Source of the DNA: Patescibacteria group bacterium
Lineage (GTDB): Bacteria > Patescibacteriota > Dojkabacteria > GCA-002793355
Assembly: GCA_016860985.1 (NCBI GenBank)
Contig: BOKM01000001.1
Coordinates: 399,462 to 463,461, forward strand
Length of the DNA: 64,000 bases
Direction: 5' to 3'
Part shown: in pieces, positions 20,129 to 36,919 of the stretch
How positions within the stretch are numbered: position 1 is the stretch's first letter
Layout of the letters: each line of letters opens with the position of its first letter
Program-made: the position numbers and the translations under genes
The notes under the pieces: model-generated
Databases searched by the model: none
Seen by the model: the letters and a program-made list of their open reading frames with translations, nothing else
Told to the model about the DNA's origin: nothing

Positions 20129-21889
20129 ATGAGAAAGTCAGTGCTTAGCACAATTACAATTATCGCAACAACCGCAGTGTCTTTGGTTTTATTCCGCCCA
20201 ACCGAAGATTCAACGAATAGTACAAAAAAGGATATTCCTTCAGAAGTCAAAGGTATCGTAACCGCACTCGAGCCAAAAATTACTTCCTCCTCCACTATCG
20301 ACGTGACACCTTCTCCCTCTCCTTCCACACAACCATCAATCACGCCAACACCAACTATTATTTCAACTCAATCTACTCAGAAAGAACAATCCGGTTTGCA
20401 AGTACAACGAGTTTCCCCTGAGCCTGAGAAGAAAACGACTACCGAAGCAGGAGCAGTTACTACATTAAGCCTCAATAATCTGCAAAAAGGTACGCTTTAC
20501 GAGGTTAAGCTCCCATTAGATATCTCAGCAAGCAACCTCAGTATTTCTTGGCCAGCAAGTAGCAGCATACCTTTATGGACAACTACACTCCCGACAAGTA
20601 TTTCACAACTTGCACCTCTTCCGCACGACGACGACATGATAACGGTGGAACTGACGAATCACTCTGGTCTTCTCCCTTTTCCCGTAGGCAAAACCTTATA
20701 CCTTTATCCGACACAAACAATTGCGAAAGCGACAATATCTCTCATTGCACCAAATGCAGAAGTTAACTCTCACAAAATCTCTACCACCGGTGTATATAAT
20801 TCTAACTCTGGGGCAAGTTATACCTCCCTAAATATTAAGACTCGTGATGAATGGGGAGCAAACCCTGCAACCTGGGATTCGAATACAAGCGCAAACATAG
20901 ACGATCCCTCACGGCTTATTTGGTATCCGGTTTATTACAAGGCATCCAGAATTGTTGTTCACCACACAGCAACAGGTATAAATACAACAAACCCTGCAGC
21001 ATCAGTTCGTGCCATATATCTTTATCATGCATACACACGAAAATGGGGTGACATAGGTTACAACTTCCTTATTGATCACAACGGTACAATCTACGAAGGC
21101 AAAGCAGGTGGGGATGAAACGCAAGGATACCATGCCTTTGGCGCAGCAAATCGAATGAGTGTAGGGATTAGCGTAATTGGCGATTACTCCTACTCGGCAC
21201 CATCGTCTAAAGCTAGAAGTTCTCTTGTAAAACTCATGGCAGAAAAAGCAGCATTCTACGGTTTTCGACTCAAATATTCAGACGGAGGAACTGCAAAGTG
21301 GAGAGATATTTCATATACAGTATTTGGGCACAGAACCTCTTATCAGTGGGATTACGATACTAATTCTTGGAAAGTTAATCAAACCGCTTGTCCAGGAAAT
21401 GCATTCGCAGCTATTCTTCCATCTTTAACTCAAGAGGCAGAAAATTACAGGAGCGCTAACTACTCAAGCCTAAAAAAACTTGCTCAAGATGTTGATGCAG
21501 CTTTTGAAGAACCACATGATCAGGGTACAATTATTGTTCGGTATAACGTTCCCGAAGATACAACAGAAGAAGTAATGCGTACATTTGTTCCAGCATATAG
21601 CGGAATAAAAAGTTACACGATTAGCGGAAATACAATAACGTACAAAATTGAAAGTGGGATAGTGATTCACCCCTACTACGGAGATTCAGAGTACCTAGTT
21701 GTACCAGATAACTGGACAGGATATGACGGTGAATACGCCACATTCAGTATCCCTTACGAAATGAACGGAGTAAAAGACAGATCAAAAACACTGCTTAAAG
21801 TTTTCAAACTGGATAGCAGAGTTCAAGCAGCAGATTTAAAGCATTATCTTCAAGTTCAAGAAATTGAGCCGCTTCAAAATGAAGATTAG
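20129..21889 (+). CDS. N-acetylmuramoyl-L-alanine amidase (Amidase_2/PGRP family) with a signal peptide, Ser/Thr/Pro linker and C-terminal extension
   Basis: The segment VVHHTA..IGYNFLIDHNGTIYEGK..GYHAFGAANRMSVGISVIGDY carries the Amidase_2 zinc-site motifs. Confidence 0.8.
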   Translation: MRKSVLSTITIIATTAVSLVLFRPTEDSTNSTKKDIPSEVKGIVTALEPKITSSSTIDVTPSPSPSTQPSITPTPTIISTQSTQKEQSGLQVQRVSPEPEKKTTTEAGAVTTLSLNNLQKGTLYEVKLPLDISASNLSISWPASSSIPLWTTTLPTSISQLAPLPHDDDMITVELTNHSGLLPFPVGKTLYLYPTQTIAKATISLIAPNAEVNSHKISTTGVYNSNSGASYTSLNIKTRDEWGANPATWDSNTSANIDDPSRLIWYPVYYKASRIVVHHTATGINTTNPAASVRAIYLYHAYTRKWGDIGYNFLIDHNGTIYEGKAGGDETQGYHAFGAANRMSVGISVIGDYSYSAPSSKARSSLVKLMAEKAAFYGFRLKYSDGGTAKWRDISYTVFGHRTSYQWDYDTNSWKVNQTACPGNAFAAILPSLTQEAENYRSANYSSLKKLAQDVDAAFEEPHDQGTIIVRYNVPEDTTEEVMRTFVPAYSGIKSYTISGNTITYKIESGIVIHPYYGDSEYLVVPDNWTGYDGEYATFSIPYEMNGVKDRSKTLLKVFKLDSRVQAADLKHYLQVQEIEPLQNED

Positions 21890-21973
21890 ATGAAGATTTT
21901 TGTCGTGCTATAGAAAACATCGATTTGCCCGTGTTATTAAAACGAACTATTGCATTACAGTTTGACACTAACT

Positions 21974-21984: not shown

Positions 21985-23211
21985 ATGTATAAATTTGCCC
22001 TCAGTTCACTCATGAAAAGAAATATAATTGCGGTTGGAATAATTTCTGCCTTGTCCATAGGTACCCTTACGCTTGTGCTTTCAAATTCATCAATTCCAGG
22101 GGATTTACTCTACAGGGTTGATCGAGGTGCCGAAAATACATGGCTTGCAATTACTGCCAATACGAACAAACTCGTATTCGGTAAATATAACTTGCAACTT
22201 GCGAAAGAGAGAACCGGCGAAATCAAGACGCTCTCAAATTCGAACATGGTAAAGAGCGCTACTATTAGAGTATACGCAGCTTCAACAAACGCAGATCAGC
22301 AAGTTATTAACGGACTTCTTGAAGATATCAAATACAACCTTACCTCTGCCAAAGAAATTATTCCAGAACTCTCCGCAAGTAATCAGACTGAATTCTCAGT
22401 TGATGTTGCTCAAGGATTAACAGAAATTGCTCAAGAATTAACGACCATCACTGAATCACTCCCCGAAACTTCGCTCTCACAGCTTGACGATTTAGTTAAT
22501 ACAATTGAAGACCTTGATGACACCGCAGTCGACATGCTCGCAAAAGCAGAAGACGAAAGTGAGGACGAGTCAGATGATGACAATGAAGTTTCTTCAACTC
22601 TTACCGCAAAATTAGAGCGTAAACTTTTAAAGCTTAGAGAAGAACATAGAATTTATTCCGCGCTACTACAACAAAACACAGCAAAAATTACACCTGAAAA
22701 AGCTGCTACCGCAGAAACCCTCTTACAACAAGTGACTGCAAGTTTGCAAGACGCAGAGAGTAAATTAGCCACGGGCGAATTAAAACTTGTTGCGGATATT
22801 ATCGACCGAACTGACGATGATTTGGATAAAGTAAAGGATTTGGTAAAAGTCGAAGACAACGACGAATCAGAGGGCGAAAACAGTAACGACCAAGATGAAT
22901 CGAACGATGATGATTCAAATGACCAACAAGACGAAGACAGTAATGACGATTCAAAAGACGAAAACGAAGATGAATCAGAACAAGAAGATGAGGAGGATGA
23001 CGAAAAAACGACCGTTACTCCTACTCCATCCAAAGTAGCCACTACTTCGACTCCAAAACCTTCAAAGACCCCAGAACCAACCGAAGTTGAGGACGAGGAA
23101 GAAGATGAATCAGAAAATGAAGAAGAGGACAGTGAGGATGAAGATGTAGAAGGAGCAACGACAAGACTTATAGAGTTAAAGGACATACTTCGCAATCGGC
23201 TAAGAATCTAG
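21985..23211 (+). CDS. Membrane-anchored coiled-coil protein with a long Asp/Glu-rich acidic tail, possibly DUF5667-like
   Basis: N-terminal anchor. PGDLLYRVDRGAEN resembles the DUF5667 N-region. A DE-rich low-complexity tract spans 22850..23160. Confidence 0.45.
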   Translation: MYKFALSSLMKRNIIAVGIISALSIGTLTLVLSNSSIPGDLLYRVDRGAENTWLAITANTNKLVFGKYNLQLAKERTGEIKTLSNSNMVKSATIRVYAASTNADQQVINGLLEDIKYNLTSAKEIIPELSASNQTEFSVDVAQGLTEIAQELTTITESLPETSLSQLDDLVNTIEDLDDTAVDMLAKAEDESEDESDDDNEVSSTLTAKLERKLLKLREEHRIYSALLQQNTAKITPEKAATAETLLQQVTASLQDAESKLATGELKLVADIIDRTDDDLDKVKDLVKVEDNDESEGENSNDQDESNDDDSNDQQDEDSNDDSKDENEDESEQEDEEDDEKTTVTPTPSKVATTSTPKPSKTPEPTEVEDEEEDESENEEEDSEDEDVEGATTRLIELKDILRNRLRI

Positions 23212-24257: not shown

Positions 24258-24819
24258 ATATATCGAATATCACGATACTGAATGGGGAGTGCCGACACAC
24301 GATGATGCACGCCATTTTGAATTTCTTATTCTAGAAGCTGCCCAAGCTGGATTAAGTTGGTTAACAATTTTACGTAAGCGCCAGGCGTATAAAATTGCCT
24401 TTGCAGACTTTGATGCAAATATTGTTGCCACGTATGGAGAAAAAGAGATTAACAAACTTCTATTAAATGAGGGGATTATTCGAAATCGTATGAAAATTAC
24501 GGCAGCAATAAACAATGCTCAACACTTCCTTCAGATTCAGAAAGATTGGGGTTCATTTGATTCATATTTATGGTCTTTTACTGAGAATAAAGTGATACAT
24601 AATAATTGGGAAAACATGCAACAGGTGCCTGCGCGTTCAGAACTTTCTGACAAGGTAAGTGCAGACTTAAAAAAGCGAGGATTTTCGTTTATCGGGACAA
24701 CAATAATGTACGCACATCTTCAAGCTGTTGGAGTCATAAACGATCATATAGTGTCTTGCTTTAGGCACGAGAATTTGCAGAGATTTACGCAAAATGCTAA
24801 TGTAATGGATGCCCCTTAG
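24199..24819 (+). CDS. tag: DNA-3-methyladenine glycosylase I
   Basis: RCPWC..P.Y..YHDTEWGVP..DD..LFE.L.LEAAQAGLSWLTIL.KR..Y..AF..FD...VA......I..LL.NEGIIRNRMKI.A.I.NAQ...IQK..GSF..YLWSF aligns along the whole length with E. coli Tag, including the zinc ligands. The start at MDISQ (24199) overlaps the upstream gene by 59 nt. Confidence 0.9.
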   Translation, partial: SMDISQDKKTRCPWCLATPEYIEYHDTEWGVPTHDDARHFEFLILEAAQAGLSWLTILRKRQAYKIAFADFDANIVATYGEKEINKLLLNEGIIRNRMKITAAINNAQHFLQIQKDWGSFDSYLWSFTENKVIHNNWENMQQVPARSELSDKVSADLKKRGFSFIGTTIMYAHLQAVGVINDHIVSCFRHENLQRFTQNANVMDAP

Positions 24820-25768
24820 TAAAGGATTGCTCATTGTTCTCACGATAATAATTTCGCTTGTTGGATTGTTTTTGGGCGGATATTTGTACCAAACACTAAG
24901 CAACCTGGACCTCGTTTCACCGAACAGAATAGAAAATAAACATTACTTCTCAGACGAAATTTTTATTAATGGACTCGGTCCGAACAACGAACCACTTTTC
25001 ATTCATCTTCTGTTAAACCGAAAACAGCGTGCCTCTGGCGACTACCTACATTATTACACCATGGAGATTGTTTCCCCCTCTCTGTCCAGAAAAATTATGC
25101 AGGAACAAGTATCAGCAGATGCAACTCTAATACCGCTACATGGCATTAAAAATATTACTCGCCAAACAGAGGAGGATCTATCTACGAGAGAGAGTTATGC
25201 CATAACCTTAGACTTTGGCAAAGAGATAGCGCTAAAGCTTTCACGATTCCAAGGAGATTTCCTACTCCATAACAAACTCGATCATACGAAGTACGCGAGT
25301 GCTGGTAAGGCCCTTATTACATTAGATGGCAAGGAATATGAACTAAACGCCCTCCTGACCAAGACCTTTGCACAAAACTATTCTACCTACGTATTTTTCG
25401 ACAATTTCGATCAACTCGATTCAACTACACACGTTGTTGTAGCTTGGGACCAAAACGACCAACTCTATTACCTCGACACTTCAGATACTCGCAGCAAGCA
25501 TACCGGTTATGGTTCCCATAAATGGGGATACTTTGGCAGCAAGCTTGGAGGGAAAAAACTCAGTAATATTACCATCACACACGCAACAACTGGAAAGAAC
25601 CCAACAGAATGGCAGGTCTCACTCCCCGAAATCGAAGATGGTGCACGATTAGAATTTAAGGTCAACTACCATGATTTATCACGTGCGGCTGGCTTACTGA
25701 AAGGAAAAGTAAAACTTGGAGAAACAGAAACTGAAATCTCAGGGTATGCAATTTATGCGGAGTATTAA
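24809..25768 (+). CDS. Membrane-anchored protein of unknown function, paralog A
   Basis: N-terminal TM. Shares NKHYF, FD.F.QL.ST.H..V.WD and ISGY motifs with the next gene. Confidence 0.45.
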   Translation: MPLSKGLLIVLTIIISLVGLFLGGYLYQTLSNLDLVSPNRIENKHYFSDEIFINGLGPNNEPLFIHLLLNRKQRASGDYLHYYTMEIVSPSLSRKIMQEQVSADATLIPLHGIKNITRQTEEDLSTRESYAITLDFGKEIALKLSRFQGDFLLHNKLDHTKYASAGKALITLDGKEYELNALLTKTFAQNYSTYVFFDNFDQLDSTTHVVVAWDQNDQLYYLDTSDTRSKHTGYGSHKWGYFGSKLGGKKLSNITITHATTGKNPTEWQVSLPEIEDGARLEFKVNYHDLSRAAGLLKGKVKLGETETEISGYAIYAEY

Positions 25769-25770
25769 TT

Positions 25771-26727
25771 ATGAATAAAAACGCACTCTTTATAACATTC
25801 CTTGTACTGTTTTTTGTTTCAATCGGAGGTGGCTTATTTCTATCAATAAAAATGCATGAGCTTGGTCTTGGTAACCGAATATCACGTCAGACCAACAAGC
25901 ATTACTTCAATGATAATTTCATTGTTTATGGCGTAGATAACAGAGGTACCCCTTTTCTGGCAGAAATATACTTGCAACGCAGTCAAAAAGATACAGGTGA
26001 GTTTGCTCATTTTTATAGAGTTGGCGTGTATTCTAACGGAAAGTTTTCTGAAAGCGAACAGCAAAAAACAATGCCCAAGCCAGAGATACAACCTTTCACC
26101 TTTCTCGACAGTTTTAAAACTTCATTTGGGGCAGATTTTTCTGCAAAACAAACATTTGTTATCGATTTTACCGTAGATTCAATTTCTTATTCATTGGCAA
26201 CTGATATTTTTAATGGTGATTTTATCGTAAGGAATGATCCTGATTATATGAAACATGTCAGTTTTGCTAATGGTACACTTGCAAGAGAAAAAGAGATTAT
26301 TCCTGTCAGTATTGCATATCTCGGAACTTATGCCGAAGATAGCAATAAGTACATATATTTTGATGGGTTTTATCAACTGCAGTCAACAGCACACCTTCTC
26401 GTACTTTGGGATGAAGCAAAAAATGTATACCTCATTGATAAATCACGGGTAAAAAGTACGCATCAGTTCTACAAATCACACACATGGGTGCTTAATAAAA
26501 GCGCCGACGGATATCTACAAAAAGCTTTTACGGCAGGTTTAAGCTACAATGAGTCCGAAGAATACCCCACTAAATGGATTATTACCCTTCCGACACTACA
26601 GAACGCAACACTTAGTCTTGAGACTGATTTCCTAAACGATACTGCATGGGGATATACGACAGGAACAATAAATGATAATGCCGGAATCCGTAAAATAAGC
26701 GGATATTCCCTCCTTACCTATTACTAA
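25771..26727 (+). CDS. Membrane-anchored protein of unknown function, paralog B
   Basis: Same length and the same conserved motifs as 24809..25768. Begins 2 nt after it. Confidence 0.45.
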   Translation: MNKNALFITFLVLFFVSIGGGLFLSIKMHELGLGNRISRQTNKHYFNDNFIVYGVDNRGTPFLAEIYLQRSQKDTGEFAHFYRVGVYSNGKFSESEQQKTMPKPEIQPFTFLDSFKTSFGADFSAKQTFVIDFTVDSISYSLATDIFNGDFIVRNDPDYMKHVSFANGTLAREKEIIPVSIAYLGTYAEDSNKYIYFDGFYQLQSTAHLLVLWDEAKNVYLIDKSRVKSTHQFYKSHTWVLNKSADGYLQKAFTAGLSYNESEEYPTKWIITLPTLQNATLSLETDFLNDTAWGYTTGTINDNAGIRKISGYSLLTYY

Positions 26728-27026
26728 CGTTTAAGGTAGTAAATAATACCAGTAATTGCTGCAATAATCGCAATAATTACCAACCACGTAACAAGGACTA
26801 ATAAAAAGAACTTTTTCTTAGAAGATTTATATTTATCAATATTGATAAATACAGAAATAAGGGTAACAGGTAAACTCGCTATCGCTAGAACAATGCCGAT
26901 TATCTGTGTTAAGCCCAAAATTACAGGAACAACAACGACAATAGCTTTTGCTGGATATACCATTGCAATCGTAAATAATAGGGTAAGAGTGTACAATATG
27001 CCAGCTACGAATTTCCAATATTTCAT
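26724..27026 (-). CDS. Small hydrophobic membrane protein
   Basis: 100 aa, about 3 TM helices, with a KR-rich C-terminal end. Confidence 0.35.
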   Translation of the reverse strand: MKYWKFVAGILYTLTLLFTIAMVYPAKAIVVVVPVILGLTQIIGIVLAIASLPVTLISVFINIDKYKSSKKKFFLLVLVTWLVIIAIIAAITGIIYYLKR

Positions 27027-27028
27027 AT

Positions 27029-28462
27029 ATGAATAATAGCACTACAACTCAAGATGCACTAAGTGAGCTTCAATCTCACATGCAGCCATTTTCACTATAC
27101 TATCAATCAGAAGCGGCAGCGCTTGTTGAGTTCCCTACTCCCTTTACCGCATCAGTAATTTCCAGACTTTTTTCGTTTGAAGGTTCTCAAGGTATTGCCT
27201 ATAAATCGCTTGGGTTGCCAATTACCAAATACAAAACAGACGACTATGTAAAATATCTATTTAGTCGAGTGTATCTTGATATTGGTTATGAAAACATCTT
27301 TTTTTATCAAAATCTTGGCTTAAGATACATGCCAGAAGAATCAGGATCAAATCCCGAACTGAAACCACTACAAAACATTGTTAGTCGATTAATTGGCGCA
27401 CTACGCAACGCGTTTGTACATGCCAGCATCCTTCAGCAAAAACAACAAATCATAAACAAGGCACAATCTTTGTTTGAGCGATTGTATCCACAGCGACCAT
27501 CGCAACAAACAAAAAGTGACTCAGTTGCCCAACTAGAGGTACTCGTCAAAGAGTTCACCGAAGATTATGCTGTTATATTTGAACTCTCGTATCTTGAAGG
27601 GTTAATCGCGCAAACTTTACCACAAGAAGAAATCGCCAGACTTTCCCCCGCCAGTAGTGATCTGTATGTAGAATCGAACGATATATTGGGCAGTAAAGAC
27701 ATATCAGTCACAGAGATTATTGAGAGATTTGGAACAAGGGGATTTAATGATTTTGAATTTGCTGCACCACGATGGCACGAAATTCCGGACGTTTTGCAAA
27801 AATTACGTTCTCCACAAACGCAACAAGCACCGATTGCAGCTACTACTACAAATCAAAGAACGATTGAACTTCAAGAAATCATTACGTTAAAAGACAATCT
27901 TCGGCTTGCAATTACCGTATACGTCGATTCCATTAGAAAAGCACTCTTTTCGATTGCAAATGCACATGAACTTACAAATGATTTAGTCTTTTATCTCACA
28001 CTTGATGATTTTGAAAGACTTAAACCAAACGAGTGGCTCAATGCCGCTCGTCGGCGCAAAAATGAATATGAAACTGGAAAGGCAGTATATCTTCCACGAT
28101 TTATCACAAGAGATACTGTCACGCAAGAAAATACGATTCAAATAAAAAATCAATACAAAGCAATTCCCGTCTCAAGTGGAAGCGTGACTGCCCCAATATT
28201 TAAGGTAAGTAATTCAGAAAAAGAAATACCACAAGGGATTATTCTTTTGTTACCTCACGCCGGACCTGAGTTTACCGTCTTTTATAAAAATGCAGTTGGA
28301 ATTATTTTTCAGAAAGGAGGAATACTGTCGCATGGTGCCATAATCGCCCGAGAAATGCGTATTCCCGCAGTTGTTTGCGCTGACTTTGATTCAAATGCAC
28401 AACTTGCAATTCTTGATGCCTCAAAAGGAGAAATAAGCTTAACTGAGGAATCTGCGGCATGA
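27029..28462 (+). CDS. PEP-utilizing enzyme mobile (phosphohistidine) domain protein with a large N-terminal domain of unknown function
   Basis: The C-terminal ~90 aa are GSVTAPIF..LLLPHAGPEFTVFYKNAVGIIFQKGGILSHGAIIAREMRIPAVV, a typical PEP-utilizers His-swivel domain with the GGxxSHxAIxARE motif. Confidence 0.65.
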   Translation: MNNSTTTQDALSELQSHMQPFSLYYQSEAAALVEFPTPFTASVISRLFSFEGSQGIAYKSLGLPITKYKTDDYVKYLFSRVYLDIGYENIFFYQNLGLRYMPEESGSNPELKPLQNIVSRLIGALRNAFVHASILQQKQQIINKAQSLFERLYPQRPSQQTKSDSVAQLEVLVKEFTEDYAVIFELSYLEGLIAQTLPQEEIARLSPASSDLYVESNDILGSKDISVTEIIERFGTRGFNDFEFAAPRWHEIPDVLQKLRSPQTQQAPIAATTTNQRTIELQEIITLKDNLRLAITVYVDSIRKALFSIANAHELTNDLVFYLTLDDFERLKPNEWLNAARRRKNEYETGKAVYLPRFITRDTVTQENTIQIKNQYKAIPVSSGSVTAPIFKVSNSEKEIPQGIILLLPHAGPEFTVFYKNAVGIIFQKGGILSHGAIIAREMRIPAVVCADFDSNAQLAILDASKGEISLTEESAA

Positions 28463-29253
28463 GTGTTATTCGACTCGACAAACATACCCCACCAGATATC
28501 TCGAGATTAGGAGGTAAGGGTGCAAACCTTGCAAAGTTACTTTCACTTGGCTGTCGCATCCCAGACTGTATTGCAATATCGCATGACCACCCAACCGCAC
28601 AAATTCTCACTGACGTGCTTCCTATTTGGGATGAATTGCATTTTCAATTAGCGGCAGTAAGAAGTAGCGCCACAGCCGAAGATTCGATAGACCAAAGCTT
28701 TGCAGGTATGTTTTCAACCTACCTTTACGTGAGCAAAGATAAACTTCTTGAAAAAATAACGCTTTGTCGACAATCTCTCTCCCTTCCAAGAGTAGCTGAT
28801 TACATTACGCGGATGTCCATTTCAAAAGAAAATGTTCACGTTAACGTTCTTGTGCAAAAGATGATAGAAGCAGACGCCTCCGGTGTTTGTTTTACAAAAA
28901 ATCCTTTAACTAATGATTCAAACGAGATTGTTATAGAAGCAATTCATGGGCAAGGCGAGTTGCTCGTTTCTGGACAAGTGACACCCGATTATTACCGTAT
29001 TGCCAAGCACAAGAATGTTCTGCTTGAGAAAAATATCTCAACCCAAGAAATTATTTTAGACAAAAAATCTCGTACCATTCGACCAAGGGAAATGGAGTTG
29101 CAACATGTACCCAAAATCTCTGAACCGATGCTTTACTTACTCAGAGAACAAGCAGAAAGTATTGAAAATATGTACCAGAAGCCGGTAGATATTGAATGGG
29201 CAGTCGAAAACGGAGTGCTTTATATATTGCAAGCACGTCCGATTACAACGTAG
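28459..29253 (+). CDS. Pyruvate phosphate dikinase-type PEP/pyruvate-binding (PPDK_N, ATP-grasp) domain protein
   Basis: LGGKGANLAKL, AVRSSATAEDS..SFAGMFSTYL and the C-terminal IEWAVENGVLYILQARPIT are PPDK_N hallmarks. Its start overlaps the previous stop (ATGA). Confidence 0.7.
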   Translation: MSVIRLDKHTPPDISRLGGKGANLAKLLSLGCRIPDCIAISHDHPTAQILTDVLPIWDELHFQLAAVRSSATAEDSIDQSFAGMFSTYLYVSKDKLLEKITLCRQSLSLPRVADYITRMSISKENVHVNVLVQKMIEADASGVCFTKNPLTNDSNEIVIEAIHGQGELLVSGQVTPDYYRIAKHKNVLLEKNISTQEIILDKKSRTIRPREMELQHVPKISEPMLYLLREQAESIENMYQKPVDIEWAVENGVLYILQARPITT

Positions 29254-30271: not shown

Positions 30272-32116
30272 TTATACCGCATAACCGAGTTTTCTCGCCA
30301 ACTCCTCCGCAACTTTAAGCTCAGACTCAATTTCTGCAAGGCCCTTGTGCCAAAAAGTTTTGTCAGCAATATCGATACCAATATCTAGGAAGATATCTCG
30401 TGTAGATTTTGATTGACCAGCGGACAAAAACACTTTGACTTTTTCGACAAAAGATTTATCGCAAAGTACTTCATGTCGAAGCGCTTTTGAAATAAGCTGC
30501 CCACTTGCGTAAGAATACACGTAAAAGAACATGCGAATGTGTGACCAGTATACCCACCAATTTTCGGAACCTTTATCAAGTGAAACTCCATCGCCCATAT
30601 AACTTCCCATATGCTTAAGGAAAAGGTTTCCAATCTCTTTTTGAGAGATATTCATGTTTTTTCTGAATTGCTGGTGAAGCTCAGTTTCAAAATTGTAGAG
30701 TGCAATCTGACGATGAATAGCACTAATATGTGCATCTAGCTCAGAGATAAGAAAGGCCAACCTGCTCTCATCATCAAGTTGAGTGATAACTTCGTCGGTA
30801 ACAAATGATTCAAAGAAGGTACTTGCTACTTCTGCAAGACCCTTTCCTACATCGTGTTGCAGAGCATTTTGAGCTTTTCTTGAGTATTCATAATGCGTTG
30901 CATGACCGGCTTCGTGTGCGAGTGTCATTAAATCACGCAGTTTGCCGTGATAATTTTGATAAAAAAATGGTGGCACATGTGGCATTGCCGAATAGCAGGC
31001 AGCACCATCAAGCTTCCCTTTTTTGGGGTTCGCATCCAGCAAACCGCGCTCAAGGAATGACTGAAATATTTCACCGAATTCCGGATCCAGGCGAGTATAT
31101 ACCTGACTAACAATTTTTATTCCCTCTTCGATTTTGTATGTTTTATCAAAGGAACCAAAGGTAAGCATACGCTCGTGATATCGCAATTTTTTCTTATTAA
31201 ACAAGGCAGCCTTCAGTTTATATAAGCGCTGCGGTACATAAAAATTTTCTGTAACCGCAGAAACGAGCGCTCCTACAATATGCTCGTCAATATCATCCGC
31301 AATAAACCTCTCTGCATCTGGCCGTTCAAAATTTCGCAATTCGTCATCAATTTTTTTATTATAAAGAACTGTATTCAACTCACTGGTTGCCCACGGAGCG
31401 ATTTTTCGTTGTATAGCATGAATATGCGACGCAGCTTTATTTCGGACCAACTCAGATTCATTGTGTAAAGAAATCGACATAAGCTCATCAAATGACTTTT
31501 TGACCTTTTTGCCATCTTCAAGAACGATACTTCGCGATTCTTTTGCGAGTGCTTCTTCTATCATTTCTACCCAACGATCGTGCGAAACTGCTTGTTTTTT
31601 CAACAAGATTATTTCCTCTTTCTCGGAGAGTAGGTGCTTTGCCGCAGCAAAGAGTTGCTCCAAATGGTGCTTGTAGGGGATTAATTTTGGATAACGGAGA
31701 AATTCTTCATGTAATTCCTTTGGTATTTTACTCACTGCAATCGGAAAGAATGCCAACCCACTAGTCACCTTTGTTGCGAACTCAATTGCTTCTGTCTTTT
31801 TTGCCTTAACATTTTCGTTCGTTTGCTCCTGAACACTGCGAAGAATCCAGTACATGGCTACTTTTCCAATATTATCGTACTCATGAACAAGCGTATTGTA
31901 TTGATCAAGTGCATTTGCAAGCACCTCAGGATTGGTCGTATATTCGTTATTTTCTCTCCATGTATGTGAGAATTTTTCACAATCATTTTTAAACGTTTCT
32001 TGATAAACAGACATAGCTGGGTCATCATCACCGGAGAAAAGGTGCGCAAGATTCCATGTGTACAATTCAGTATTTGTTTTTTTCGACATGTGTGATTGTA
32101 ACATCATTACTTTCAT
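30272..32116 (-). CDS. pepF: M3-family oligoendopeptidase (PepF-like)
   Basis: HEAGHATH zinc-binding HExxH motif with a downstream Glu. Length and helical composition are typical of M3B. Confidence 0.8.
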   Translation of the reverse strand: MKVMMLQSHMSKKTNTELYTWNLAHLFSGDDDPAMSVYQETFKNDCEKFSHTWRENNEYTTNPEVLANALDQYNTLVHEYDNIGKVAMYWILRSVQEQTNENVKAKKTEAIEFATKVTSGLAFFPIAVSKIPKELHEEFLRYPKLIPYKHHLEQLFAAAKHLLSEKEEIILLKKQAVSHDRWVEMIEEALAKESRSIVLEDGKKVKKSFDELMSISLHNESELVRNKAASHIHAIQRKIAPWATSELNTVLYNKKIDDELRNFERPDAERFIADDIDEHIVGALVSAVTENFYVPQRLYKLKAALFNKKKLRYHERMLTFGSFDKTYKIEEGIKIVSQVYTRLDPEFGEIFQSFLERGLLDANPKKGKLDGAACYSAMPHVPPFFYQNYHGKLRDLMTLAHEAGHATHYEYSRKAQNALQHDVGKGLAEVASTFFESFVTDEVITQLDDESRLAFLISELDAHISAIHRQIALYNFETELHQQFRKNMNISQKEIGNLFLKHMGSYMGDGVSLDKGSENWWVYWSHIRMFFYVYSYASGQLISKALRHEVLCDKSFVEKVKVFLSAGQSKSTRDIFLDIGIDIADKTFWHKGLAEIESELKVAEELARKLGYAV

Positions 32117-32174
32117 CTGTTCTTCATGTACTTTGTTTTATACTTATTCTACAATCTAAGATAAATACATAAAT

Positions 32175-32774
32175 ATGAAAGAATTTTTTGAATCATTCCC
32201 CGTTCTTGTCATCTCAATTATTGCAACAATTACCGGAGGAACTGCTGTTAACAAGGTAGTACAGGAAATTAAATCCACGACTCCAAATAACGAGCAAAAA
32301 GTGGTTGAAGTAAAAAGGGTTGAAACTACCCCAAGTGCACTGCCAACTCTAGTAGTAACAGAACCTGCTGTAAACCCAACTGCTACCCCAGAGGTGGTAC
32401 AACCCACTACGCCAAAAAACGGCCAAAACGCGACTTTTACTGCTGCGACCCTTGCACTTCATAACAAGCCTGGAGATTGCTACGTTGCCTACAAAGGAAT
32501 TGTCTACAATGTTTCTTCACACCCTTCGTGGGCTTCCTGCCGACACCACGGCACAAGTGGAGGAAGGGATATTACATCAATTTTTCCTCATTCTACAAGC
32601 TACTTTCTTACTTTGAGCAAAGTTGGCACGATTTCAACTAGTAACGCCACTAGTCCAACAAAACCTTCAGATGATTCTCATGACGACGATTCCGAAGATA
32701 ATGAAGACGAAGAACACGAGGATGAGAGAGAGGATGAGGACGAAAACGAGGTTGAAATAGAAGATGAAGACTAA
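32175..32774 (+). CDS. Membrane-anchored cytochrome b5-like heme-binding domain protein with an acidic C-terminal tail
   Basis: TM anchor and Pro/Thr linker. YKGIVYNVSSHP...HHGTSGGRDITSIFPH resembles the b5 heme-binding fold (H..GG..D.T..F..H). An Asp/Glu-rich tail follows. Confidence 0.5.
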   Translation: MKEFFESFPVLVISIIATITGGTAVNKVVQEIKSTTPNNEQKVVEVKRVETTPSALPTLVVTEPAVNPTATPEVVQPTTPKNGQNATFTAATLALHNKPGDCYVAYKGIVYNVSSHPSWASCRHHGTSGGRDITSIFPHSTSYFLTLSKVGTISTSNATSPTKPSDDSHDDDSEDNEDEEHEDEREDEDENEVEIEDED

Positions 32775-33135
32775 CATCACAAAGCAAAAAGCAAAGATCT
32801 CGATGAGGATGCTCGCAATCATCCTCATCGGTTGTCTTATAGGAATATTGTATCTTTACAAATGGCAACCGCAAAAAGAAACTGTACTCCCAAATCAATT
32901 AGAGTCCTTCACTCTCACTGAACTAGCAAAATACAATGGTAGTAATCCGACGTTGCCAATATATATCGGATTAAATGGTTTAGTCTACGATGTCAGCAGT
33001 GGAAAGAAATTTTATGAACAAGGTGGCACATATAATTGGCTTGCAGGAAAGGATTCCAGCAACGATTTAAACCTAATTGGAGGGGATATTATTAAGCGTA
33101 AATATCCAGTTGTTGGTATACTAACTACGGAGTAA
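32764..33135 (+). CDS. Membrane-anchored MAPR/PGRMC-type cytochrome b5-like heme/steroid-binding domain protein
   Basis: FTLTELAKYNGSNPTLPIYIGLNGLVYDVSSGKKFYEQGGTYNWLAGKDSS matches the MAPR signature (F....L..YNG....PIY.A..G.VYDV..G..FY..GG.Y...AG.D.S). Confidence 0.6.
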   Translation: MKTNITKQKAKISMRMLAIILIGCLIGILYLYKWQPQKETVLPNQLESFTLTELAKYNGSNPTLPIYIGLNGLVYDVSSGKKFYEQGGTYNWLAGKDSSNDLNLIGGDIIKRKYPVVGILTTE

Positions 33136-33140
33136 CAAGT

Positions 33141-34439
33141 ATGAATCGGACCTCACTTCTCTTTTTGTCGAGTATCGCAATCACATTTGTTCTTTGGATA
33201 CTTTCCAAAGAACATTTTGTGCTTTTTGTTTCGACTGATACGCTGAAAGCAATAACGCAGATTTGTGCACTAATCGGCGCTGTTGGATATTTTTTCACCT
33301 ATATTCTTTCAAGTAAACTTCCATTTCTTGAAAAAATAACCTCTTTAGACCAACTCTATAAAACGCACCGGCTAGTAGGAACACTCGCAGGTGCGGGTAT
33401 ATTACTCCATGTAAGTTCATTGATAGCGCGACTTTTACCACTCCCTTCGGCGTTTACGCTCTACCTTATTCCTAGCACAAATCTCTCTTATAACGTTGGA
33501 ATACTCGCTTTTTACTTACTACTTGTACTCCTTATTACTACGTTATATGCAAATCTGCCGTATCATATCTGGAAGCTTATACACAAGCTCGCTTCTTTTG
33601 GTATTCTCTTTGCTTTTCTGCACCTTCTCATTATTCCTAGCGATATAAGCACGAATTTACCCTTGAGAATATGGATGATTGGCATTGCTACTCTAGGAAT
33701 GATTGCGTGGGTATACAAAGAGTTTTTGGAGCAGTTTATTCGCAAATCTTTTGAGTATCGAGTAACCAATATCGCAAAAGCTGATGACATTACGGTCATT
33801 ACGATGCAAGCTCAAAAAGATTCGATTCCAGCTACACCGGGGTCTTTTGCTTTCTTTACTTTCTATGCAGATAACAAAGTCGTTACTAAGGAATCGCACC
33901 CGTTTACCATTCTAGACACAAACGCGAACGAACTCGCGATTGCTGTTAAAAACCTTGGAGACTACACGACTCTAATATCGTATATCCCCGTTGGATCAAA
34001 AGTCGTAGTAACCGGCCCTCATGGCAAGTTTGGAAAAAGGATACTTGCAACAAAAGAACAGCAAGTCTGGATAGGTGCAGGCATAGGGATCACCCCCTTT
34101 TATAGTGTCGCTTCGTATCTTCAAAAAAGGGGCTTATCTCATCATTCAATAGATTTATTTTATTTCACCTCAACGCCTGACAAAATTTTCCACCCTACGC
34201 TGCTCGCATCTGCAAAAGAAACTGGAATCAAGTATACATATGCGTGCACATCAATTTCTGGTCGCCAATTACCGTCGAACCTGCTCAGTGAGGACACAGT
34301 TTCTAACAAAAAAGTGACTTATTTTTTGTGTGGTCCAGCAGGAATGATTAGCGCTTATTCTGAATATCTTTTATCTAAAGGCGTACCCCAAAAGAGAATT
34401 ATTACTGAAGCATTTGAGTTTAAATCGCTTGAAATATGA
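33141..34439 (+). CDS. NOX/ferric-reductase-like transmembrane flavocytochrome: bis-heme FRD domain plus FAD- and NAD-binding dehydrogenase domain
   Basis: Six TM helices carry two His pairs, spaced 13 (HRLVGTLAGAGILLH) and 12 (HKLASFGILFAFLH) residues apart. This is the bis-heme motif of the ferric reductase domain. The C-terminal FNR-like region has HPFTI (FAD) and GAGIGITPF plus CGP (NAD) motifs. Confidence 0.75.
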   Translation: MNRTSLLFLSSIAITFVLWILSKEHFVLFVSTDTLKAITQICALIGAVGYFFTYILSSKLPFLEKITSLDQLYKTHRLVGTLAGAGILLHVSSLIARLLPLPSAFTLYLIPSTNLSYNVGILAFYLLLVLLITTLYANLPYHIWKLIHKLASFGILFAFLHLLIIPSDISTNLPLRIWMIGIATLGMIAWVYKEFLEQFIRKSFEYRVTNIAKADDITVITMQAQKDSIPATPGSFAFFTFYADNKVVTKESHPFTILDTNANELAIAVKNLGDYTTLISYIPVGSKVVVTGPHGKFGKRILATKEQQVWIGAGIGITPFYSVASYLQKRGLSHHSIDLFYFTSTPDKIFHPTLLASAKETGIKYTYACTSISGRQLPSNLLSEDTVSNKKVTYFLCGPAGMISAYSEYLLSKGVPQKRIITEAFEFKSLEI

Positions 34440-34852
34440 ATCTTCGATCGATTCTCACTCCTGCTTTCTCTGCTTTTCTTATTACTGTTATGGCTAGTGT
34501 TACATTAAATATATTTAGTCCCCAACAAGCAGGGCGTGACGACACTTCGGTTGAAACTTCTGACATTCCGATGCCAACCCAAGCGACTGACCTAACGGTA
34601 ACACCTAGTGTTTCTACCAAACCGAGCACTACGCCCTCTGTAGCAAAACCAACTGCAACACCAAAGGCAACCGCACGCCCAACAGCAAAACCTTGCATTG
34701 TTACAGTCAACGGAAGCAGATATGATGTTACGTCACTACGAAAATCACATTCTGGGGGGAATATCTTTGTATGTGGCACAAACATGACCTCCACCTTTCA
34801 ATCTATGCACGGAAACGACTATAATATCATTAGAAAATATAAAATCTCGTAA
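34436..34852 (+). CDS. Secreted cytochrome b5-family heme-binding protein
   Basis: Signal peptide and Thr/Pro linker. YDVTSLRKSHSGGNIFVCGTNMTSTFQSMH parallels canonical b5 (YDVTKFLEEHPGGEEVL..GGDATENFEDVGH), including both axial His. Confidence 0.6.
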   Translation: MNLRSILTPAFSAFLITVMASVTLNIFSPQQAGRDDTSVETSDIPMPTQATDLTVTPSVSTKPSTTPSVAKPTATPKATARPTAKPCIVTVNGSRYDVTSLRKSHSGGNIFVCGTNMTSTFQSMHGNDYNIIRKYKIS

Positions 34853-34854
34853 CA

Positions 34855-35526
34855 ATGAAACTTTTACTAATCGAAGATGACACCGTTTTGGCAGAAAACA
34901 CGAAACTATACCTAGAACGACTTAAGTATAAGGTTGAGGTTGCGCACAATGGGAGTATTGGCCTTCTTAAAGCACAAAAGCACACCTATAGCGTCATTCT
35001 TTTGGACTGGATGATCCCGTATAAGGACGGTATAACCGTATTGAAAGAACTGAGAGAAGGCGGAAATACAACCCCCGTAATTATGACTACAGCAAAAGGC
35101 CAATTAGAACAAAAACTTGATGGGTTCTCTGCAGGTGCAGATGATTACCTCTCAAAACCATACACTCTCGCAGAACTCGCGGCAAGAATCGAAGCGGTAA
35201 TCCGAAGAGCACATACTTCTCAAAATACCTCTGTACTTAAAATTCGTGATTTGAATGTAAATATTCACACGACAAATGTAACACTAGGCAAAAATGAACT
35301 CCTTCTTACACCAACAGAATACTCAATCTTGGAGTATTTGTGCGTCAATAAAGGAAAGACCGTATCTCGAGCAGAATTACTGCATCATGTGTGGAATGAC
35401 GATGTGAATCAATTTACCAATCATGTAGATGTTCATGTTAAGAACTTGCGCAAAAAGCTAGCACAATACTCCGAGGAGCCTTACATACTTACAGTAAAGA
35501 ACAGAGGTTATCTCATAAATGAGTAA
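34855..35526 (+). CDS. OmpR-family response regulator
   Basis: Receiver domain with DD...D...K residues (LLIEDD, ILLDWMIP, SKPY). The C-terminal winged helix has LTPTEYSILEYL. Confidence 0.85.
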   Translation: MKLLLIEDDTVLAENTKLYLERLKYKVEVAHNGSIGLLKAQKHTYSVILLDWMIPYKDGITVLKELREGGNTTPVIMTTAKGQLEQKLDGFSAGADDYLSKPYTLAELAARIEAVIRRAHTSQNTSVLKIRDLNVNIHTTNVTLGKNELLLTPTEYSILEYLCVNKGKTVSRAELLHHVWNDDVNQFTNHVDVHVKNLRKKLAQYSEEPYILTVKNRGYLINE

Positions 35527-36919
35527 ATACAAGTTAACTGCACTCCAGCAAATTACAATAAACTTTGTTACCGGAGTGTTCTTAGTACTCGCCATCGTTT
35601 TTGCGACAATAACCGCTCTTTCCTCAACTCTTCTTGAAAACAAAATCAAAACCGACTTATTCCGAGAAGCCGAAGAAATTGTGACACAATACATGAGACT
35701 TGAGGATGATAGAATTACATACTTTACGGAAGACAATGGGCAAACTTTAGAGCAAGATCTTACAACTGATCAACTCTCTGCTATGGTCACAACTCAAGAA
35801 GGCGAGTCCATTGGAAAATTCGGATTCTTTGCTGCTCCAGAGTTTTCTGAAAATGAAAAACAAGCACTCTCACCAAACATCGAATCTGCCTGCAGTGGCA
35901 ACACATACTTTTACGCACGGCAATCACTACAAAAAGAAAATGCACTTCTACTTTATTATCCCATTCTAGCTGAAGGAAGATGCAGAGGAGTTGTTATCAT
36001 CGCCAGTAACACACAGCTCATAGATGATATGTCCCGCATCAACCTTATTGCTATATCCTTTGCGCTGGGAATTGCCCTAATACTCGCACTTTTCATTGCA
36101 AGGCTCACAGCTAAAAAAATTCTACACCCACTTACTTCACTTACCACAACTATAAAACAAATTGATCTTTCTCGAAGTCAGGCCGAAGTTGTTTCGCCAT
36201 ATGCGAAAGAGGATGAAATCACTTCACTGATTTCATCCTACAATGCGCTCGCAAAAAAAGTAGCCACAATCGTTGCTCAAGAAAAAGAATTTGCGTCAAA
36301 AGCATCACACGAACTTAAAACACCACTGGCAAGAGTTACAACAACGTTAGATATTCTATCTCTTGACCTAGAATCGATTACTGATTCATCCGTCAGAATA
36401 ATGCTTCAAGAGAAAATTTCTGCCGCCCAACAAGAGCTTAAAGGTATTGGTGATACGATATCACTCCTTTTACAAGCGACACGCGCAAAAAATCTCCCAC
36501 AAAATCATGAGCGCATAAAAATTTCACAATTAATAGCTCACGAAATTTAAAGTATTGCGAAAGAATACAAAAGCAAAGAAATAACCGTACATCATGACGT
36601 AGTACCCTACATCGTATTCGCAGACAAGCTCATTTTGACGCATATTTTTAGAAACTGTTTTAGCAACGCCTTCAAACATAACAAACTAAAAGGAAGTATA
36701 CAGATTTCATACGCAATCGAAGCCAACACAATCGAGATTTCCATACAAAACTCAATTCTTTCTACTGAGGGCACAGTAAAAGACAGCCATAAAATTGGGT
36801 CTTCTGTTATTGAAACCTTGTGTACTGCAGCAGGTTACACCACAAAAACAAGACGAGATTCTACTACCTACGAAATATCAATCGGAAATATCCCGCTCAA
36901 CGCTACTCAACCACAATAG
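35519..36919 (+). pseudogene. Sensor histidine kinase interrupted by a single in-frame TAA at 36548..36550 (listed as ORFs 35519..36550 and 36635..36919)
   Basis: H-box FASKASHELKTPLA lies in the first ORF. Translation continues in the same frame straight after the TAA (SIAKEYKSKEITVHHD...) into the N-box NAFKHN. The catalytic domain is therefore cut off from the HisKA domain. Confidence 0.6.

Follow-up and report, generated by a model that had tools for sequence, protein, structure and literature searches.

Genomes of the candidate phyla radiation (CPR) have previously been reported to carry an operon built around cytb5MY, a b5-type protein with a tyrosine heme ligand and without the MIHIR insert (Tamarit et al., 2021; bioRxiv 10.1101/2021.11.17.468889, section 3.5). 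In that account the cytb5MY gene is combined with a gene called pFre, two b5-like genes and a two-component system; the cytb5MY arrangement was counted in 36 CPR genomes, 29 of them with the putative ferric reductase, 28 with other b5-domain genes and 22 with the two-component system, and the authors proposed an ancestral operon of five parts, along with a membrane complex whose function was unknown. The same authors treat pFre as a flavin or ferric reductase, and mention neither NADPH oxidase (NOX) enzymes nor the bacterial representative SpNOX, an operator or promoter element, or an acidic protein. Here we describe a cluster of six genes (g1–g6) in a 64,000-nucleotide stretch of DNA from a Patescibacteria group bacterium of the Dojkabacteria (GenBank assembly GCA_016860985.1, contig BOKM01000001.1, positions 399,462 to 463,461 of the forward strand); the whole of this stretch is called the window below, and all coordinates refer to it.

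Two other described systems are relevant for comparison. SpNOX consumes O2 and makes superoxide in vitro, and periplasmic protein partners have been proposed for bacterial NOX enzymes by Hajjar et al. (PMC5676040). Its turnover is 124.7 per min with cytochrome c reduced directly, 48 per min with O2 and 3.6 per min with iron; its outer heme is solvent-exposed, a canonical O2-reducing center is absent, and the authors of the structure considered that a physiological acceptor other than O2 could not be excluded (PMC11564096). MsrQ-like proteins, in which a PF01794 domain is joined to an NAD domain, have been proposed to pass NAD(P)H electrons to extracytosolic flavinylated carriers, with FMN_bind domains as the extracytosolic electron carriers (Meheust 2021; PMC8238504).

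The locus in the window is a member of the kind of operon that Tamarit et al. (2021) already described bioinformatically. It comprises six open reading frames on the plus strand at 32175–36919 (Table 1), all of which had been located correctly in a first-pass annotation of the window; as that annotation had also stated, the redox genes run without interruption into the two-component genes g5 and g6. The junctions range from −11 to +5 nt, with three overlaps (11, 4 and 8 nt) and two gaps (5 nt, between g2 and g3, and 2 nt), instead of the gaps or overlaps of at most 3 nt given in the annotation. The cluster contains a cytb5MY gene (g2), an adjacent PF01794 gene (g3, E 1e-8), CBLA-like and CBLB-like genes (g1 and g4, labels assigned from the text of the preprint and not from its sequences) and a two-component system, in a CPR host. 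As in the published operon, the b5 protein is of the Tyr type and lacks MIHIR, the reductase belongs to PF01794, the two atypical b5 proteins are clade-1-like and clade-2-like, the regulator is of the OmpR type and is paired with a kinase, every protein but the regulator is membrane-anchored, and the operon structure is the same; unlike it, the kinase of this strain contains a nonsense codon. The first-pass annotation had not recognized the gene combination as a described operon, which it is, and had called it an unexpected investment for a reduced genome, which is overstated given that PF01794 genes were found in 1427 of 7645 CPR genomes (Tamarit et al., 2021). New with respect to that study are the SpNOX identity of pFre, a conserved operator-like box, a reversed copy of this box near a gene for an acidic protein, pairs of the same kind outside the CPR, and the nonsense codon in the kinase.

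We consider this CPR operon of cytb5MY, pFre, A- and B-type b5-like proteins and a two-component system most likely to be a regulated electron-export chain. In the proposed scheme, g3 would oxidize cytoplasmic NAD(P)H and pass single electrons via FAD to an inner heme (H76 and H148) and an outer heme (H90 and H161), and thus across the membrane; the outer heme would then reduce the membrane-tethered, bis-His b5 proteins g4 and g1 on the cell surface, and these in turn an external acceptor. Our leading guess for this acceptor is a metal, Fe(III) for instance, that the acidic tails would bind; the history of the family and the tails themselves both suggest it. The Tyr-ligated, MAPR-like g2 would more likely be a heme-binding or heme-handling protein, or a specialized terminal component, than a simple carrier, and g5 would switch the operon on through an 18-bp direct repeat, which takes the place of a −35 element. 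Judging from the heme potentials of b5 and NOX proteins, the steps from NAD(P)H to the b5 domains would be thermodynamically downhill. The route from NAD(P)H through FAD and two hemes to surface b5 proteins had been put forward in the first-pass annotation, and it is also our best-supported model. In its favor are the bacterial-NOX motifs and SpNOX-like fold of g3, the reduction of cytochrome c by SpNOX, the leucine that g3 has at the His119 site, the predicted outward orientation of the b5 proteins, the gene linkage and domain fusions, the analogy with MsrQ-like systems and the conserved box. Domain content, heme and cofactor motifs, modeled fold, synteny, fusions and the box are observed; the direction and partners of electron transfer, the binding of the regulator and the acceptor are predictions.

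Table 1. Genes of the cluster and associated features in the window, with the matches or methods on which each assignment is based.
Feature	Position	Strand	Description	Basis
g1	32175–32774	+	199 aa; transmembrane anchor, Pro/Thr linker, cytb5M-type (CBLA-like) b5 domain, acidic tail	Pfam Cyt-b5, E 9e-7, above gathering score
g2	32764–33135	+	123 aa; transmembrane-anchored cytb5MY (MAPR-like b5, Tyr heme ligand, no MIHIR insert)	Pfam Cyt-b5, E 2e-7, above gathering score
g3	33141–34439	+	432 aa; six-helix, di-heme FAD/NAD(P)H flavocytochrome of SpNOX type (pFre of the preprint)	Pfam Ferric_reduct, FAD_binding_8, NAD_binding_1
g4	34436–34852	+	138 aa; signal peptide or anchor, Pro/Thr linker, short classical-type (CBLB-like) b5	Pfam Cyt-b5, E 1e-4, 22.7 bits, just below the 23.7-bit gathering score
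g5	34855–35526	+	OmpR/PhoB-family response regulator	Pfam Response_reg, Trans_reg_C, E 1e-25
g6	35519–36919	+	Sensor histidine kinase, broken by in-frame TAA at 36548–36550	Pfam HAMP, HisKA, weak HATPase_c
Candidate operator	32110–32127	+	Two direct repeats	Comparison of upstream regions of orthologous loci
−10-like hexamer	32139–32144	+	TATACT, 11 nt after proximal repeat	
Second operator-like repeat	21879–21894	−	Reversed copy	Exact pattern match in window
Acidic-protein gene	21985–23211	+	Transmembrane-anchored helical protein, start probably M10 at 22012; candidate member of same regulon	

By its motifs and modeled fold, g3 is an SpNOX-type enzyme. Its heme histidines form the pairs H76-x13-H90 and H148-x12-H161, that is, they are 14 and 13 residues apart, the spacings of H101/H115 and H209/H222 in NOX2 (PMC3591440). 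The spacing had been noted in the first-pass annotation, which also expected the pairs to lie in the third and fifth transmembrane helices (TM3 and TM5); in the AlphaFold (AF2) model (pLDDT 88, pTM 0.81) they lie inside helices 69–98 and 141–164, which are TM3 and TM5. In an alignment of 26 homologues the four histidines, HPF 253–255, GIGITPF, and C397 and P399 of the CGP motif are invariant, and F425 nearly so. The sequence filter of Hajjar 2017 for bacterial NOX looks for two His-x12/14-His pairs on separate transmembrane helices and 3–7 such helices in total (PMC5676040), and g3 passes all the filters of that study, with two His pairs, six helices, HPFTI at 253–257 and GIGITP at 314–319. 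A Foldseek search with the model gave the three full-length SpNOX structures 8QT6, 8QTA and 8QQ7 as best matches (TM-score 0.75–0.81, or 0.76/0.81 for 8QT6; E down to 2e-23), followed by human NOX5, DUOX1 and NOX2. SpNOX is also the best solved relative by sequence (E 2e-23), with its F397 aligned to the C-terminal F425 of g3. The two proteins (compared with 8QT6 and 8QQ7) share the architecture of six transmembrane helices with FAD and NAD(P)H domains, a similar size, the four heme histidines, the HPF and GIGITPF motifs, a C-terminal Phe over the flavin and the lack of a His119-type O2 site. They differ in that their identity is only 23–26%, and in that no b5 gene adjoins the SpNOX gene in the Streptococcus loci examined.

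The signature of NOX enzymes that produce reactive oxygen species includes a His at the position of NOX2 His119, four residues past the outer heme ligand of TM3 (Zhang 2013; PMC3591440). In g3 this position is a Leu (residue 94), invariant among the 26 homologues, so that g3 lacks this part of the signature. G120 is also invariant and, by a hand alignment to NOX2, may correspond to G179 of the Thr178-Gly179 dipeptide in TM4, another element of the signature, although the preceding residue of g3 is hydrophobic and not Thr. The b5 proteins of this operon are obvious candidates for the protein partners that have been proposed for bacterial NOX enzymes.

Of the three b5-type proteins, g1 finds its best Protein Data Bank matches in two structures of archaeal cytb5M, 6VZ6 and 6NZX; the axial ligands H42 and H61 of these structures align to H124 and H139 of g1. 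These ligands, a Cys pair (C102, C122) and an acidic tail with 25 Asp or Glu in the last 46 residues are kept in five orthologues, including one from a candidate division WS6 genome. The g4 protein aligns to the b5 domain of flavocytochrome b2, HSGG with HPGG and MHG with LHA, and its C87, C113, H105 and H125 are invariant in eight homologues. A word-indexed search returned only these eight proteins, sufficient for judging conservation but a thin alignment for the AF2 model of the g4 domain, which has pLDDT 81–94; b5 domains make up all of its 50 best fold matches, with the classical type ranking highest. The domain assignments of the first-pass annotation are borne out by Pfam profile matches throughout the cluster, with g4 slightly below threshold, and NCBIfam holds no model for g1, g2 or g4.

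The third of these proteins, g2, matches Arabidopsis MSBP (1T0G, E 6e-15), 6NZX (9e-7) and PGRMC1 (4X8Y, 1e-6). Its Y84, Y90, K113 and Y114 correspond to PGRMC1 Y107, Y113, K163 and Y164 and are invariant in seven orthologues. The MIHIR insert that defines the eukaryotic MAPR family is absent from g2: the alignments to PGRMC1 and 1T0G end before the insert, where g2 has about 10 residues and then a KYPVVG strand. With the Tyr ligand set and no MIHIR, g2 fits the definition of cytb5MY in the preprint exactly. It thus resembles eukaryotic MAPR proteins (4X8Y and 1T0G) in its N-terminal transmembrane anchor, its b5-like fold signature and its heme-contact residues, and differs from them in lacking MIHIR, in its predicted outward orientation and in its location in a bacterial redox operon.

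The b5 domains of g2, g4 and g1 are predicted to face outward, in keeping with the suggestion of the first-pass annotation. A hydropathy scan finds one N-terminal helix each in g1, g2 and g4 (six in g3 and two in g6); the N-termini of g2 and g4 are positively charged ahead of this helix, with four Lys or Arg in g2, and g1 and g4 each have a Pro/Thr linker and a conserved Cys pair. For g1, the outward orientation is proposed because the WS6 genome (L003) encodes a g4-type and a g1-type domain fused on one chain behind a single anchor. Double b5 domains also occur in two other loci (L012, L033). Separately, three distant g4 homologues (P0124, P0126, P0128) have a Pro/Thr linker and an acidic tail after the b5 domain; acidic tails thus move between the b5 proteins of these systems.

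The six-gene arrangement is far from a chance association. As the first-pass annotation had proposed to check, gene order is conserved in L081, L083, L084, L085, L089 and L003, among them relatives whose g3 proteins are 46–79% identical to that of the window and a WS6 genome (L003). The relative at 79% has all six genes with an intact 464-aa kinase, those at 46–49% keep the six genes, and the WS6 genome (L003), the nearest named genome with the cluster, has the order g1 (fusion), g2, g3, regulator, kinase. An independent metagenome scan with the g2 family yielded 39 loci, 29 of them informative; a g3 gene adjoins the g2-family gene in 24 of the 29, another b5-like gene is present in 20, and a two-component system is found in 10 of the 14 loci with sufficient downstream sequence.

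Pairs of a NOX-like gene and a b5 gene were also identified outside the CPR, in Pacearchaeota (L004, L010), Woesearchaeota (L027), a metagenome-assembled genome of Pseudomonadales, and Nitrincola. In the three DPANN loci, a gene for a transmembrane-anchored HPGG b5 protein (Pfam E 1e-19 to 3e-22) follows the NOX-like gene within a few nt. The complete gammaproteobacterial genome of Nitrincola sp. MINF-07-Sa-05 (NZ_CP176580, L035 5881–8369) has the order LysR, NOX-like gene, and a gene for a protein with Cyt-b5 and two FMN_bind domains, with a 4-nt overlap. The Nitrincola pair shows that the pairing of NOX-like and b5 genes is not specific to CPR bacteria, and the DPANN and gammaproteobacterial loci do not support the statement of Tamarit et al. 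(2021) that colocalization of pFre and b5 genes is restricted to the CPR. Nitrincola sp. MINF-07-Sa-05 is also a possible experimental model. With respect to the MsrQ-like and MsrPQ systems, the cluster in the window is alike in having a di-heme PF01794 membrane protein, often fused to an NAD domain, with a carrier protein encoded next door; it is unlike the MsrQ-like systems in that their carrier is an ApbE-flavinylated FMN_bind protein, whereas here the carriers would be b5 hemoproteins, and no ApbE or FMN_bind domain was found by Pfam in g1–g6 or the flanking genes scanned. Nitrincola, with b5 and FMN_bind domains, is a hybrid of both kinds. In several Proteobacteria (L032, L036, L040, L057, L061, L067, L080), a g3 homologue stands beside a divergent pair of OmpR-type regulator and kinase genes, and two-component control of NOX-like genes may thus recur outside CPR bacteria.

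Comparison of the regions upstream of orthologous loci revealed a conserved box ahead of g1, consisting of the 7-bp direct repeats CTTTCAT (32110–32116) and TCTTCAT (32121–32127), 4 bp apart with a phasing of 11 bp. The same box precedes g1 in L081, L083, L084, L085 and L089, a TCTTAAT variant is found in L003 and more distant lineages, and a TAnnnT hexamer follows 10–11 nt after the box in every locus aligned; many metagenome loci show this layout ahead of their first cluster gene too. Box hits number 17 in 244 kb of cytb5MY loci, vs. 0.5 expected from shuffles, and 5 in 805 kb of loci with only a g3 homologue, vs. 1.2 expected. A generic scan for sigma-70 promoters and terminators returned fewer promoter-like sites than shuffled sequence and missed this real-looking promoter. 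In the pmra-box and the PhoB site, direct repeats overlap the −35 region, with XTTAAY-N5-XTTAAY for the pmra-box (PMC10570014). The box here resembles the class II promoters of these systems in having two 6–7-bp repeats with 11-bp phasing that overlap the −35 region about 10–11 nt upstream of the −10 element, and its TCTTAAT variant matches the pmra-box pattern itself; it differs in that the sensor domain of the kinase is neither PhoR-like nor PmrB-like, and in that its other target has the copy reversed and some 110 nt ahead of the −10 element. On the basis of this geometry and conservation, we propose the box as the operator of g5, whose closest solved regulators are DrrD and BasR/PmrA.

An identification of the two-component system as the Fe3+-sensing PmrAB, which the CTTAAT-N5-CTTAAT-like form of the box and the matches to BasR had brought up, was not adopted: taken alone, the DNA-binding domain of g5 is nearer to DrrD, CovR and ArlR, and the sensor has no Pfam match. 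The idea that the box is conserved merely through its overlap with the start of a divergent M3 peptidase gene was rejected, as the box is kept where a different gene lies upstream. The distal repeat (32110–32116) does overlap the first possible ATG of the M3 oligoendopeptidase open reading frame (30272–32116, minus strand). The real start of this gene is probably 3–4 codons further in, as its orthologues are 607–610 aa long, and the gene may share a control region with the operon.

The pattern TTCATN6TTCAY has exactly two matches in the window, the box itself and a reversed copy near the gene for an acidic protein (Table 1). In the window, L081, L083 and L085, the reversed copy stands at a fixed position, −131 to −133 from the start of this gene. 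A conserved extended −10 element (TGyTATAAT) follows some 110 nt downstream of it. The encoded protein is transmembrane-anchored and helical, with a long acidic tail; Pfam gave no significant match for the protein in the window, and a weak precomputed match to DUF5667 exists for the L081 orthologue. In L085, L083 and L089, the gene for a homologue of this protein lies directly upstream of the cluster. The gene is a candidate member of the same regulon, as judged from the box, its placement and its absence from L082, which also lacks the b5 genes and the two-component system.

As stated in the first-pass annotation, g6 has the domains of a histidine kinase, but its reading frame is interrupted, with two pieces (35519–36550 and 36635–36919) in the same frame. 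The layout is two transmembrane helices, an outside domain of about 150 aa, HAMP, HisKA and a degenerate ATPase domain. In two strains with 99.7–99.9% nucleotide identity (L087, L088) the kinase is intact at 466 aa, with CAA (Gln) in place of the stop codon; L086, an assembly with 100% identity, likewise has TAA, the change being C to T. The TAA is a real strain-level nonsense polymorphism, and it damages the coupling to the two-component system in this strain. A sequencing error and a recoded stop were both rejected as explanations, given that other genes end in TAA, that a second assembly has the TAA and that sister strains have CAA. In the window and the L081, L084 and L085 orthologues, the N box of the ATP-binding domain is preserved, the G2 box is degenerate, and the G1 (DxGxG) and F boxes are missing, whereas the WS6 orthologue (L003) has canonical ATPase boxes; the kinase of this clade may be a pseudokinase or a phosphatase-only sensor. 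The outside sensor domain (35519–36040 in the window, residues ~25–175) gave no Pfam match. A conserved EAEEI motif occurs in it, as do two Cys that the close clade shares and WS6 does not; a redox- or metal-sensing role for this domain is speculative.

Elsewhere in the window, 24809–29253 holds four genes that L081, although otherwise syntenic, does not have: they encode a PEP-utilizers mobile-domain protein, a PPDK_N ATP-binding-domain protein and two unknowns. A relation of these genes to the cluster was rejected, and they represent an insertion or deletion between relatives. An Rfam scan of the whole window returned no match.

Several points weigh against electron export. A Tyr-ligated heme, as in g2, makes a poor electron carrier, and to our knowledge CPR bacteria generally lack heme synthesis, so that the five hemes of the system would have to be scavenged. 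The orientation of g1 is left undecided by charge bias. The cluster encodes neither an iron or heme transporter nor a terminal reductase, and Pfam found no transporter in the flanking genes scanned. The truncated kinase and the degenerate ATPase domain shared by its clade may mean that regulation is atypical or lost. Finally, one locus (L082, Logan SRR27197505, 1628–10129) has a g3 gene with 53% identity standing alone between the same neighbors, an M3 peptidase and an HAD hydrolase, without g1, g2, g4, the regulator, the kinase or the acidic-protein gene. This looks like a coordinated loss and makes the b5 and two-component partners accessory, and g3 is evidently able to function without them.

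An assimilatory role, in which g1 and the acidic protein would trap Fe(III) or Cu(II) with their acidic tails and the same conduit would reduce the metal for uptake, is a sub-case of electron export that we regard as possible though unlikely. The FRD superfamily includes the metal reductases FRE and STEAP (PMC3591440), some MsrQ-like clusters carry the ferrous transporter VIT1 (PMC8238504), acidic tails are conserved in g1 orthologues and recur in distant g4-like proteins and the putatively co-regulated acidic protein, and both the pmra-box likeness and the closeness of g5 to BasR/PmrA would suit such a role. Acidic tails are, however, not specific evidence of metal binding, no iron transporter is encoded in or beside the cluster, the reduction of iron by SpNOX is very slow (PMC11564096), and the comparison with the DNA-binding domain of g5 alone points away from PmrA.

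We find it rather improbable that the module is decaying or deregulated in this strain, with the kinase as a pseudogene. The stop codon, present in two assemblies and replaced by CAA in nearly identical strains, would fit such a state, but none of the other genes is damaged, their sequences being the same or nearly so from strain to strain, and the ATPase domain of the kinase is degenerate yet conserved throughout the clade, so that signaling may not rely on it; decay would in any case concern only regulation and not the nature of the module.

Heme capture by a heme auxotroph, in which surface b5 and MAPR-like proteins would bind scavenged heme and g3 would reduce it for transfer or release, seems to us quite doubtful. 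Tyr-ligated heme proteins typically serve heme transfer, MAPR proteins have been reported as heme chaperones, and the PGRMC1-type Tyr ligand set of g2 is of this kind; in addition, the system needs about five b hemes in a type of organism usually unable to make heme. Against this, both axial His are retained in g1 and g4, as in b5 proteins that carry electrons, the cluster has no heme transporter gene, and in most CPR and DPANN loci the partner of the g3 homologue is an ordinary HPGG b5 protein and g2 is absent.

The alternative offered in the first-pass annotation was a bacterial NOX that produces superoxide and has b5 partners. In this reading g3 would be a true NADPH oxidase, its outer heme would generate superoxide or H2O2 for signaling or attack, and the b5 proteins would act as modulators, which is now very unlikely: although SpNOX, the closest characterized relative, does make superoxide in vitro (PMC5676040) and the modeled fold also matches NOX5, DUOX1 and NOX2, the His119 equivalent is an invariant Leu, SpNOX itself has no canonical O2 center and its authors doubt O2 as the physiological acceptor (PMC11564096), and three co-encoded heme proteins would be unnecessary for O2 reduction.

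Since this type of operon was reported in 2021, the locus adds a member to a described kind of system and does not establish a new one, and the function proposed for it here is a prediction. What it adds is a set of candidate NOX partners encoded in the same operon, which makes the question of a non-O2 acceptor directly testable with purified parts. MAPR/PGRMC-type proteins have been without a known function in prokaryotes, and the operon gives the bacterial proteins closest to them a redox setting that is both defined and regulated. The conserved operator-like box and the co-lost acidic protein offer starting points from which the signal and the remaining members of the regulon could be traced. 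In CPR organisms, which are thought to live by fermentation, membrane redox chemistry of this kind, with electrons led outward under regulation, would be uncommon. It is possible, though we would stop short of calling it probable, that a bacterial NOX homologue physiologically delivers its electrons to surface b5 hemoproteins, in a stimulus-controlled, NAD(P)H-driven export of electrons from a fermentative CPR cell without respiration, in which the MAPR-type protein has a heme-handling or terminal role and a Pho-box-like operator defines a small regulon that includes an acidic surface protein. If so, a CPR cell would dump reducing equivalents on a metal, a host surface or an oxidant, and the operon would both answer what SpNOX-like enzymes are for and provide a first function for the prokaryotic relatives of MAPR proteins.

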